From Escherichia phage vB_EcoM_Ozark: a stretch of 64,000 bases of DNA. A program made the translations under genes and the position numbers. Position 1 is the first letter of the stretch. Each line of letters begins with the position of its first letter. The notes beneath the pieces were generated by a model. The model was not told the DNA's origin, did not search any database, and saw only the letters and a list, made by a program, of their open reading frames with translations. The stretch lies in sequence record NC_054927.1, one strand, 5' to 3'. This document shows positions 60,026 through 62,893 of the stretch, in pieces.

Positions 60026-60369
60026 CTAGTACTCAATCCTCGATTATAAGAATCTACTAAACGGTCAACCATTGAATGACAAGCGGCTTTATCTTTCTCC
60101 TCCGCAACTGAACATTCTAAGGTATTCCACTTTTTAGCATATCGTTTTAACAATGTATCATTTTTGTATCTGCTTGATTTATCTCTTTCTCCGTCTTTAT
60201 ATGCATATATTAATTTCTGCGCAAATTCAGCTTGGCATGCTTTATTTTTCCCACAATAATCCGCGGCAGTACGGTTTACATACTCTCTAATTTCAGTATA
60301 TGATGTATCTGCTGATGCAGAAGCAGAAAATGAAATTAATCCTATACATAAAACCAAAATTTTAGTCAT
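60022..60369 (-). CDS. secreted Cys-containing protein (115 aa, signal peptide)
   Basis: N-terminal signal peptide ending ASADT. Confidence 0.45.
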   Translation of the reverse strand: MTKILVLCIGLISFSASASADTSYTEIREYVNRTAADYCGKNKACQAEFAQKLIYAYKDGERDKSSRYKNDTLLKRYAKKWNTLECSVAEEKDKAACHSMVDRLVDSYNRGLSTR

Positions 60370-60907
60370 TTACTATTTCCAAAAGTTTATTATTTTTAAG
60401 GTAATTAGCCTTTTCTAGGACTTCAGAAGCATATTTAGAACCAGCTTTAACATTCCATCCCGAATTATAAGAGGATATTGCTTTTCTTATATCGCCCTTA
60501 TGTATATTTAACCAATAAGAAAGTTCAATGTACGCCCATGAAGCTGAATTGGATCGTTTATTCAACATTCTTTTTATTTCAGCATCGGTCATATTATAAC
60601 CAAGTTCCTTAACTCTTGCTCGCATAGTAGGCAAATAATTTTGGAACATTCCATAGGCGTGATGCTTTGGTTTAGATTTTAAATTAACTCCGCCAGAGCT
60701 TTCTTGCCATAAAATGGCTGCCATTATATGACCTAATCCGCTCTTGTGGATATTTTTATGTGTTTTATATTTTCCATCCTTAGAAAATTGTTCCCCGAAT
60801 TGATACGCGTAACGCATGTTATCGAGTTGGACATTACTGAAAGTATGCTCGGAGCTATGTGCCATCATTGAAATGGCCAATAGACCAGCGAGTAGTGCTT
60901 TTCTCAT
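60362..60907 (-). CDS. secreted lytic-transglycosylase-like protein (181 aa)
   Basis: signal peptide; WQESSGG...YGMFQN...YNSG resembles SLT catalytic motifs. Confidence 0.5.
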   Translation of the reverse strand: MRKALLAGLLAISMMAHSSEHTFSNVQLDNMRYAYQFGEQFSKDGKYKTHKNIHKSGLGHIMAAILWQESSGGVNLKSKPKHHAYGMFQNYLPTMRARVKELGYNMTDAEIKRMLNKRSNSASWAYIELSYWLNIHKGDIRKAISSYNSGWNVKAGSKYASEVLEKANYLKNNKLLEIVND

Positions 60908-60914
60908 GCTTACC

Positions 60915-61376
60915 TCATTGAGTTTTAATTACTGCTTTAGAAGCCTTTCCTGGTAAACGACGACTGTTAATAATTGCCATCCTACATTGAAGTGACGGGT
61001 CTTTGAACTTCTCATTAGGTTTACAAACTGTAAATCCAAGCCAAAGATTTCCATCTGTGATTTCTAAACGTCCAGGACGATATTCAACCCCATCAATAAA
61101 ATCCTCGTCAATGTCAGGACGCGGAGGCATACTCAGGAATTCATTAACTTCTAAAACATGGTCTTTTATTTTATGGAATAATTCAAAAACATATGTCTCA
61201 TCAATCTCCCGCTGAATTGCGCGATCAAGAAGATGCTGAGAATATTTTAGATGAAACGATGAGACCCCTGCTGCTTTTGATGCCTCACGAATCTCATTGT
61301 TAATTTGACGAAACTCCGACTCAAAGTGACGACGAAGCTTATTTCGACGGATAAAAACTTCTGTATTGATAGTCAT
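60915..61376 (-). CDS. regB: RegB endoribonuclease (153 aa)
   Basis: 153 aa; matches recalled T4 RegB. Confidence 0.8.
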   Translation of the reverse strand: MTINTEVFIRRNKLRRHFESEFRQINNEIREASKAAGVSSFHLKYSQHLLDRAIQREIDETYVFELFHKIKDHVLEVNEFLSMPPRPDIDEDFIDGVEYRPGRLEITDGNLWLGFTVCKPNEKFKDPSLQCRMAIINSRRLPGKASKAVIKTQ

Positions 61377-61756: not shown

Positions 61757-62016
61757 ATACTGGCTTCTTTGAGTTTCGTTTTAGCAATAGTTAACTGATC
61801 GAGGCTTTCGGTGTAATTCTTCGCGAGTTCATCATCTTCACAGCTATCAAATGCTTCCCAAAATTCATCGTATAAAGCATCAAAGATAAGTCCTAAACGA
61901 ACTTCAGCGTCTTTAATAGCATTTACTTTACCGATTTTTTCGTCGGTATGTGGCTTATAACCTTTAATATCTTCAATCATATTTGACTTCCTCACCAGTA
62001 CATAAATCGTATTCAA
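61714..62016 (-). CDS. hypothetical protein (100 aa; start likely internal)
   Basis: ORF. Confidence 0.4.
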
Positions 62017-62194
62017 CTAAACGAATAGGTTCATGAATGCCATATCCATGAACAGAAATTTCTGTAGTAGGATAAATTCCATTAATATCACCCATGTTCC
62101 ATGCTTCGTTAAATTGCTGTTCGCCTGAATTACTAAACCACTCGGCGAAAGCATTTAGCACATCTTCAGAACCTTCAATAATTATCTTTGCCAT
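61973..62194 (-). CDS. hypothetical protein (73 aa)
   Basis: ATGA overlap with upstream gene. Confidence 0.4.
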   Translation of the reverse strand: MAKIIIEGSEDVLNAFAEWFSNSGEQQFNEAWNMGDINGIYPTTEISVHGYGIHEPIRLVEYDLCTGEEVKYD

Positions 62195-62556
62195 TACAAA
62201 CTCTCGGTAAAGGTACGAGCGATAACATCGCGCTGCTGTTCCGGAGTCAGAGAGTTAAAGCGAACTGCATAACCGGATACACGGATGGTCAGCTGCGGAT
62301 ATTTTTCCGGATGCTTAACTGCATCTTCCAGAGTTTCGCGACGCAGAACGTTTACGTTCAGGTGCTGACCACCTTCAATTTTAACTGTAGGCTGTTGCTC
62401 AATTTCAATTTCACGGGCATGCAAACCGTAGAAAATTTCTGGGTCTACAAAAGAGTCCTCTTTAAAGGTTTTAGAGACAATAATTCGTGCTTGAATACCA
62501 TCTTCAAAATAAATAGTGCCTTTGTGTGTGCCTTCAAGAATTTGATATGCTTTCAT
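62194..62556 (-). CDS. autonomous glycyl radical cofactor (GrcA/YfiD-like), 120 aa
   Basis: C-terminal RVSGYAVRF glycyl-radical motif; 3-prime half GC-rich and host-like. Confidence 0.8.
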
Positions 62557-62563
62557 ATAAACC

Positions 62564-62893
62564 TCAATTAGAAAATAAATTTATCCAAGATTGTTCTTTA
62601 ATTAAAAATGGCTCAGAATCATATGCCATTAAACTTTGGGTAATTAATCCTTTAAAAGGTCCATCAATAAATTCCATGGTAAAATATGGAATTTTATTCA
62701 TTAGCCGCGCATTAGGAGCAGTGCACAAAACTCTGCATCCTTTGAATACGCCTTTTTGTAATTTGTATTGCTTGGGATAAAATTCGCTCAAAATGTTGTT
62801 ATTTGCCAAAATTTCAAAATGATTCACCAATTTATTTTTAATAGTTTTTGGCGAAAAATAAAGATATTCGAAAAGCTGAGTGTCTGTCATCAT
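62564..62893 (-). CDS. hypothetical protein (about 109 aa)
   Basis: start set to ATG 62893 (ATGA overlap with upstream stop). Confidence 0.4.

Follow-up and report, generated by a model that had tools for sequence, protein, structure and literature searches.

Probable recurrent overwriting of the glycyl radical domain of T4-type phage gene vs.6 by host grcA

The DNA analyzed here, called the window, is a stretch of 64,000 nucleotides from Escherichia phage vB_EcoM_Ozark (NC_054927.1) and represents a genome segment of a T4-type phage (Tequatrovirus). An initial annotation, made from the letters alone, had placed a GrcA-like gene at 62194 to 62556, and the placement holds, with an open reading frame on the minus strand whose product matches the Pfam Gly_radical family and the GrcA structure 6OWR (Table 1). 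The product is the same as T4 vs.6 (Y06I), the homologue proposed in that annotation, at 118 of 120 residues, the two differences being Q54P and R73H. At the DNA level, the whole gene is 98 to 99% identical to vs.6 in several hundred Tequatrovirus genomes, and in 478 phage records one gene matches it at 95 to 99% identity. In T4, RB51, and RB69, the annotation of the matching gene reads either vs.6 or autonomous glycyl radical cofactor.

Several lines of evidence identify the product as a GrcA-type protein. Pfam PF01228 (Gly_radical) is matched over residues 60 to 101 with 67 bits (gathering cut-off, 22.2; E = 2.5e-18), residues 22 to 120 align with residues 28 to 127 of GrcA (NMR structure 6OWR; E = 9e-42), and residues 58 to 120 align with residues 697 to 759 of pyruvate formate-lyase (PFL), the C terminus of that enzyme (E = 5e-26). 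The protein has the traits of the GrcA functional class, being small (~14 kDa) and stand-alone, with a C-terminal part that corresponds to the oxygen-cleaved fragment of PFL. It also carries the glycyl radical motif RVxG[FWY], in the form RVSGYAV, and by analogy with the family Gly95 is the predicted radical-bearing glycine. The NCBIfam equivalog TIGR04365 (spare_glycyl), with a cut-off of 170 bits, is missed because the N half has diverged; the window protein reaches 154.9 bits over profile positions 25 to 126 only, compared to 233.9 bits for E. coli GrcA. As an aside, the T4 and RB69 orthologues are named GrcA in RefSeq despite scores below this cut-off, an annotation inconsistency. The vs.6 orthologue group, phrog_1209, is matched over the full length (residues 1 to 120; E = 5.7e-63), and the position between vs.7 and vs.5 is kept. 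The phage protein very likely works like GrcA and is annotated as such, yet it belongs to a separate phage subfamily (phrog_1209).

The gene order around vs.6 is that of T4. The stop codon of vs.6 and the start of vs.5 overlap by one base (TAATG), and vs.5 lacks homology to the host locus, the likeness to E. coli ending at the vs.6 stop codon. A 363-nt vs.6 lies between vs.7 and vs.5 in six genera, namely, Tequatro-, Mosig-, Jiaoda-, Karam-, Slopek-, and Pseudotevenvirus. The neighboring stretch 60362 to 61376 holds vs.1, whose 181-aa product begins like a signal peptide, and regB (153 aa), confirming the T4 gene order across the region; weak similarity of vs.1 to lytic transglycosylases is given in the literature. 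Within vs.5, at 62029 to 62053 on the minus strand, a 10-bp stem-loop with a T-rich tail resembles a terminator and may be due to chance. A scan for promoters and terminators gave consensus-level sites only, not clearly over the shuffled expectation.

Table 1. Features of the vs.6 locus, in window coordinates
Feature	Position	Strand	Basis or remark
vs.7, 109 aa, upstream neighbor	62564..62893	minus	phrog_2049; synteny with T4, RB69, and SCS4
GAGG, Shine-Dalgarno-like, 5 nt 5' of the vs.6 ATG, overlapping the vs.7 stop	62562..62565	minus	sequence reading; putative function
vs.6/Y06I CDS, phage GrcA homologue	62194..62556	minus	120 aa, ATG to TAA; ORF, Pfam, phrog_1209, T4 annotation
Phage-specific N-terminal part of vs.6, gene positions 1-178, residues 1-59	62379..62556	minus	AT-rich, far GrcA homologue
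Host-derived conversion tract (probable), gene positions 179-350, codons 60-117	62207..62378	minus	171/172 to an E. coli grcA allele; breakpoint 62378
GGT codon of Gly95, in motif RVSGYAV (residues 92-98)	62272..62274	minus	aligned to GrcA Gly102 and PFL Gly734
Last four sense codons and stop, ACC GAG AGT TTG TAA	62194..62206	minus	synonymous codons of phage type, bordering the tract on its 3' side
vs.5, 73 aa, downstream neighbor	61973..62194	minus	ORF, phrog_1986; synteny with T4 and RB69

The two halves of vs.6 have different relationships to the host gene. As the initial annotation had proposed, residues 68 to 127 of E. coli GrcA recur unchanged in the last 60 residues of the phage protein (EGGQHLNV...TFTESL). 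With gene positions 179 to 363 as the query, blastn gives a hit in each of the 5426 complete E. coli genomes, the highest identity being 97.3% (E = 2e-81). The N half had been described as AT-rich and divergent and is both, but it is still homologous to the N half of GrcA (BLASTP, 35% identity over 40 aa; E = 5e-6). In a pairwise alignment with grcA, similarity 5' of the tract exists at the protein level only, and there is none past the vs.6 stop. A codon-anchored maximum chi-square of 103, reached in none of 2000 permutations, sets the breakpoint at gene position 179, with 47% identity to grcA on its left (115 aligned nt) and 97.3% on its right (182 nt). At the other end, E. coli has ACT GAA AGC CTG as the counterpart of the last four codons, and four of the last 13 bases of vs.6 differ from E. 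coli, every one synonymously. Both ends of the host-like patch fall within the vs.6 reading frame, and the tract between them encodes the entire glycyl radical domain. A significant internal breakpoint combined with a host-like segment, a mark of psbA-type mosaic genes, is present in vs.6. Across phages, sites 351, 354, 357, and 358 at the 3' edge show many mixtures of host and phage states, which argues for conversion end-points that vary and for separate events.

Base composition changes with the breakpoint. GC content rises from 0.36 in the N half to 0.49 in the C half. Third-position GC is 0.25 in the N part and 0.45 in the tract, against a background of 0.24 +/- 0.07 for 58-codon segments of the open reading frames in the window, only 0.5% of which reach the tract value. 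All five leucine codons in the tract are CTG, a codon that makes up 8% of leucine codons in the phage reading frames. The GC-rich, host-like codon usage noted at the outset is therefore real, while its extent needs correction, from 62194 to about 62400 as first given to 62207 to 62378. The phage-specific N part shares 90% identity with RB69 and 71% with Klebsiella phage KP1. A megablast of the 64-kb window against E. coli genomes returned only the vs.6 tract and a weaker echo of it in pflB; no other E. coli-like DNA was found in 1 to 39000, and 39001 to 64000 holds the vs.6 tract alone. As donors of the tract, pflB and tdcE are ruled out, being only ~79% identical there. The initial annotation had left two routes for the 3' half, acquisition from host grcA or conversion against it. 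The host origin is upheld by agreement at 171 of 172 bases, and conversion of a pre-existing phage homologue is favored because the same gene occupies the same position in six genera and the ends of the patch are intragenic.

To trace the tract to particular hosts, we compared it with grcA alleles within E. coli, where synonymous variants segregate in this region, for example, at phage gene positions 192, 204, 219, and 330. The window tract agrees with allele A (L001) at 171 of 172 bases, the sole difference being at position 219 (CGC versus CGT), and allele A is rare (20 of 5426 E. coli genomes). The exact window haplotype, G-A-C-T at 192/204/219/330, occurs in none of the 5426 genomes, the best match being 171/172, and it requires one extra mutation or a second short patch beyond allele A. 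Complete agreement (172/172) is seen between allele B (SK1144) and the tracts of T2, two IMG/VR sequences (L089 and L090), and a Mosigvirus-like sequence (L094); over the tract, allele B is the haplotype of E. coli B REL606. Shfl2 is likewise identical (172/172) to an L188-type allele found in six gut-metagenome contigs. T4 agrees with allele B at 171/172 and RB69 with the K-12 allele (allele C) at 171/172, and phage sequence L092 differs from allele L191 at one tract site (position 237). At least five E. coli haplotypes are matched exactly or with one difference by phage tracts. No more than 1 nt separates allele B from 374 records of the public phage collection, many of them identical to it, a count that reflects BLAST identity bands, as do our other wider counts, the base-by-base comparison having covered ~16 phage sequences. 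The grcA of REL606 (L260:37559-37942) is itself mixed, with a K-12-like N part and the allele B state at position 240 (phage 219), so the host gene also recombines within the species.

The tract of E. coli phages appears to extend to relatives with other recorded hosts. Tequatroviruses recorded on Yersinia, Serratia, Citrobacter, and Pseudomonas have a vs.6 that is 97 to 98.6% identical to that of the window, which points to E. coli-type tracts in these phages; the tract of Yersinia phage PST, the one checked base-wise, is 98.8% identical to allele A. Among them, Pseudomonas phage PsgM02F (OR584013.1; host, P. coronafaciens) has a vs.6 97% identical to that of the window over its full length, implying an E. 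coli-type tract, and its recorded host seems unlikely to be its usual one.

In Klebsiella phages of the genus Jiaodavirus, the corresponding part of vs.6 is occupied by a tract of K. pneumoniae type. At the protein level, the E. coli-type and Klebsiella-type tracts differ by E76L and K80E (phage numbering). Its 5' edge agrees within 2 nt (175-178/180), and its 3' end point varies. Against K. pneumoniae-type grcA, Nispero agrees at 169 of 172 positions (longest exact run, 125), 15882-6-2 at 166 of 172 (exact run, 131), and KP1 at 164 of 172. An IMG/VR fragment (L163) is nearly exact to Klebsiella-type grcA over partial (~140 nt) coverage and carries host bases at each of the four sites that distinguish KP1 from the host, and 106 phage records fall in the BLAST identity band of 95 to 99% to the Klebsiella allele. 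When 80 species-representative grcA loci were considered as donors, only Escherichia was near for the window and none was near for the Klebsiella phages; the K. pneumoniae-type alleles came from a metagenome scan. These metagenomic host loci encode exactly GRCA_KLEP7, and they have grcA-upstream sequence in common with the E. coli locus, including an element that we take to be an FNR box. The tracts of the window and KP1 are identical at 150 of 172 positions, which equals the tract identity between the host genes of E. coli and K. pneumoniae (151 of 172). Judged by these sequences, the phage tract appears to track the phage's own host group, E. coli type in E. coli phages and K. pneumoniae type in Jiaodaviruses. 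More than one independent exchange, with different host alleles or species, a further mark of psbA-type mosaic genes, is found for vs.6.

Recent conversion is not a feature of every phage that carries a GrcA-like gene. Slopekvirus-type sequences from IMG/VR (L100-L102) encode the identical 60 C-terminal residues, but their DNA agrees with the best of 163 host grcA genes at only 148 to 150 of 173 positions (~86%). Constraint on the protein is therefore insufficient to account for the near-identity of the tract, and near-identity at synonymous sites argues for recent common descent of the DNA itself. Recent conversion against the hosts compared was not seen in K. oxytoca phage PKO111 and the Karam-, Slopek-, and Pseudotevenvirus genes (74 to 90% identity), nor when these three genera were taken together with T5-like phages, jumbo phages, and uncultivated ~150-kb phages (72 to 86%); the GrcA-like genes of T5-like and jumbo phages are at 72 to 75% DNA identity to host grcA, and those of Karamvirus and jumbo phages have phage-like codon usage. 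Conversion is therefore not universal, or the donors of the nonconverted groups are unsampled.

Some individual sequences in these groups deserve mention in their own right. Slopekvirus-type vs.6 genes split into two sets, L004/L105/L106 and L005/L100-L102, with Klebsiella-type (ETLLDAVEH) and E. coli-type (ETLEDAVKH) residues, respectively; both sets have only 83 to 86% DNA identity to the hosts compared and may represent older conversions or host-matching selection. Uncultivated phage contigs from IMG/VR (L107-L112 and L119; 32 to 154 kb) carry a longer GrcA-like gene of 130 aa, ~60% identical to the window protein, and one of them (L109) has an exact run of 53 to 56 nt against Haemophilus-/Pasteurellaceae-type grcA, which may be a conversion in another host family. 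Among bacterial records, an enterobacterial grcA lies on a 253-kb contig with a Gram-positive label (L037; NZ_JBQPOM010000029.1, "Vagococcus sp. WN89Y"), its GrcA falling in the 90%-identity cluster of K. pneumoniae GrcA, and the assembly is probably mislabeled or contaminated. A full grcA on "plasmid unnamed4" of Klebsiella sp. WOUb02 (L028; 275 kb) may reflect a chromid or a misassigned chromosome fragment.

Could the host-like C half date from a single ancient capture of grcA and owe its likeness to purifying selection on protein and codons, without recent exchange? Protein-level conservation of the C-domain is very strong across all the GrcA-like genes of phages, T5-like and jumbo phages included, and enterobacterial grcA also shows conservation of its synonymous sites, with E. 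coli and Klebsiella agreeing at ~88%. The data nonetheless already contradict this explanation, and we give it almost no credence. Besides the ~86% DNA identity of genes for identical residues, phage tracts equal particular segregating host alleles at 172 of 172 bases, and the E. coli tract is found in E. coli phages and the K. pneumoniae tract in Klebsiella phages. In addition, comparison of the window with RB69 gives 97.7% identity in the tract, against 65% in vs.7 and 72% in vs.5 on its flanks and 90% in the N part of vs.6.

A further question is how many times host DNA entered these phages. T-even phages recombine freely in mixed infections, and one host-to-phage event could have been followed by spread from phage to phage, with the agreement with host polymorphisms being coincidence or recurrent mutation at hot sites. 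The haplotypes at 192/204/219/330 are G-A-C-T in the window, A-T-T-C in T4, and A-T-C-T in SCS4, the closest relative of the window. The window and SCS4 both have the rare 330T, yet they are unlike at 192 and 204, a pattern that resembles shuffling and suggests either partial re-overwriting or exchange between phages. Transitions account for three of the four main shared sites, and part of the sharing of tract variants among Tequatroviruses could stem from phage-phage recombination. As the whole explanation, however, a single event is improbable. At least five host haplotypes occur among 12 phages, three with zero or one difference, and six of the eight third positions polymorphic in phages, out of 57, are also polymorphic in the host (hypergeometric P = 1.4e-4). 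The Jiaodavirus tract comes from a different host species, and RB69 is reported to be unable to recombine with T4 and genetically isolated from it (PMC6024577).

The best explanation of the locus, which we consider likely, is that vs.6 is a resident phage spare-part gene whose codons 60 to 117 have been overwritten repeatedly through homologous recombination with host grcA. The mosaic, its breakpoint, and the matches to specific host alleles and species are features of the sequences themselves. Flow from host to phage is the most economical reading of them, because the tract has host codon usage, because host grcA alleles differ at similar density where the gene has no phage counterpart, and because the phage-specific edge states (175-178 and 357/358) are in no E. 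coli genome among the top-scoring matches from the 5426 searched. The same three points make it extremely unlikely that flow ran from phage to host and that T-even DNA shaped the grcA alleles of E. coli and Klebsiella, as does the divergence between E. coli and Klebsiella in the tract, which equals that in the rest of the gene. Such flow has a precedent in the two-way recombination signals that Sullivan et al. described for cyanophage psbA (PMC1484495), and abortive infections could leave phage DNA in survivors.

A mechanism for recurrent host-to-phage conversion can be proposed in which vs.6 would be a long-standing phage gene, homologous to grcA over its whole length, with a C-terminal domain that stayed competent for recombination with the host gene, being bound to fit the host activase and cleaved PFL. 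Once a host tract was in place, its 172 near-identical bases would permit more exchange with host DNA during infection, so that overwriting would be a natural form of marker rescue from chromosomal grcA. Singer and colleagues are said to have found in 1982 that ~50 bp of homology is enough for T4 recombination, and marker rescue of T4 from cloned DNA is routine. Since recombination would start and end only in alike sequence, the diverged N half would bound the patch on the 5' side and the stop codon and vs.5 on the 3' side, and one-way flow from host to phage would hold the patch near-identical to an allele of a recently met host. The recombination machinery, the conversion rate, and any fitness benefit are points that we infer. 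Conversion events could be rare, given that T-even phages break down host DNA and contain modified cytosine.

Tentatively, and in our view somewhat less likely than not, the vs.6 tract may be a standing conversion sink, each infection of a grcA-bearing host carrying a small chance that the 172 bases are copied anew. If so, the tract would be a running record of the last host lineage, fine enough to tell the E. coli allele or the Klebsiella species, and the spare part would stay matched to host PFL and activase after host switches. It would also represent a natural, quantifiable flow of genes from the chromosome to a lytic phage despite DNA degradation and cytosine modification and could serve as a marker of the natural hosts of T-even phages.

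The role first suggested for this gene, a spare part for oxygen-damaged PFL, is one with which the literature credits Y06I. Wagner et al. (2001), as cited in PMC8683613, showed biochemically that Y06I restores oxygen-cleaved PFL, complementing the damaged enzyme, and in the same text only Y06I and YfiD count as validated spare-part proteins, receiving their radical from PFL-AE and reactivating cleaved PFL. The window protein very likely shares this activity with Y06I and GrcA, because its C-domain is identical to that of GrcA. If the protein behaves like its T4 orthologue and like E. coli GrcA, Gly95 would receive its radical from the PFL-activating enzyme of the host, and the C-terminal domain would replace the PFL fragment lost when oxygen cleaves at Gly734. 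The spare part would thereby sustain fermentative output of acetyl-CoA and formate in an infected cell whose host genes are shut off.

Instead of host PFL, the protein might serve the glycyl radical enzyme of the phage itself, the anaerobic ribonucleotide reductase NrdD, or it might act in nucleotide metabolism. The latter was proposed by Nolan et al. in 2006, the Gly_radical domain being found also in NrdD (PMC1524935), and Andorfer et al. speculate on spare parts for further glycyl radical enzymes (PMC8683613). Such a role fits the sequence data less well and seems highly improbable, given that the C-domain is identical to GrcA and nearest to the PFL C terminus (E = 5e-26; TIGR01255), that it has been replaced repeatedly by host PFL-type sequence, and that Y06I complements PFL.

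Compared to known systems, the gene and its biochemistry are already familiar, at textbook level for T4, and the locus itself is ordinary. T4 vs.6 is the same gene with the same length and the same neighbors, and its copy is equally mosaic; the window differs in carrying another, rare E. coli allele in its tract and in being without the R73H of T4, which leaves its C-domain identical to GrcA. E. coli GrcA (YfiD) has the same last 60 residues and an N half that is a distant homologue, the phage protein being 7 residues shorter. Unlike host grcA, vs.6 has neither a grcA-type upstream region nor the host terminator and lies within a phage early-gene cluster with translational overlaps; the host upstream region is presumably where the FNR site lies. 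In T5-like, jumbo, Karam-, Slopek-, and Pseudotevenvirus phages, the product of the GrcA-like gene is likewise small and has the same conserved glycyl radical domain at its C terminus. Overwriting of vs.6 would resemble laboratory marker rescue of T4, phage enzymes copying short homologous nonphage DNA into the genome, except that in nature the host chromosome would act as donor.

The closest analogue of vs.6 conversion is the intragenic recombination between host and cyanophage psbA and psbD (Zeidner 2005; Sullivan 2006, PMC1484495). In both cases, a metabolic gene of a T4-like lytic phage has patchy GC content and segments swapped with the host copy. The vs.6 case is unlike psbA and psbD in showing one sharp 172-nt tract, 99 to 100% identical to named host alleles, in allowing the direction to be argued, and in having the same tract replaced in two host genera. 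Recurrent host-to-phage conversion of vs.6 was not found described in the literature that could be searched, whose coverage is limited so that an earlier mention is possible. Conversion that recurs and is specific to the host allele adds modestly but cleanly to what is known of this gene.

Strictly lytic T-even phages destroy host DNA, yet exchange of a short stretch between them and the host chromosome appears to be ongoing. It appears frequent enough that, in hundreds of sequenced phages, the tract is no more than one base away from a living E. coli allele, and Klebsiella phages have the Klebsiella version. The vs.6 tract offers a simple natural system in which to gauge host-to-phage recombination and a possible marker of host lineage, and it calls for caution in work on vs.6 that relies on codon usage or phylogeny. 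The part of the protein that is bound to fit host enzymes is the part that is kept identical to the host.
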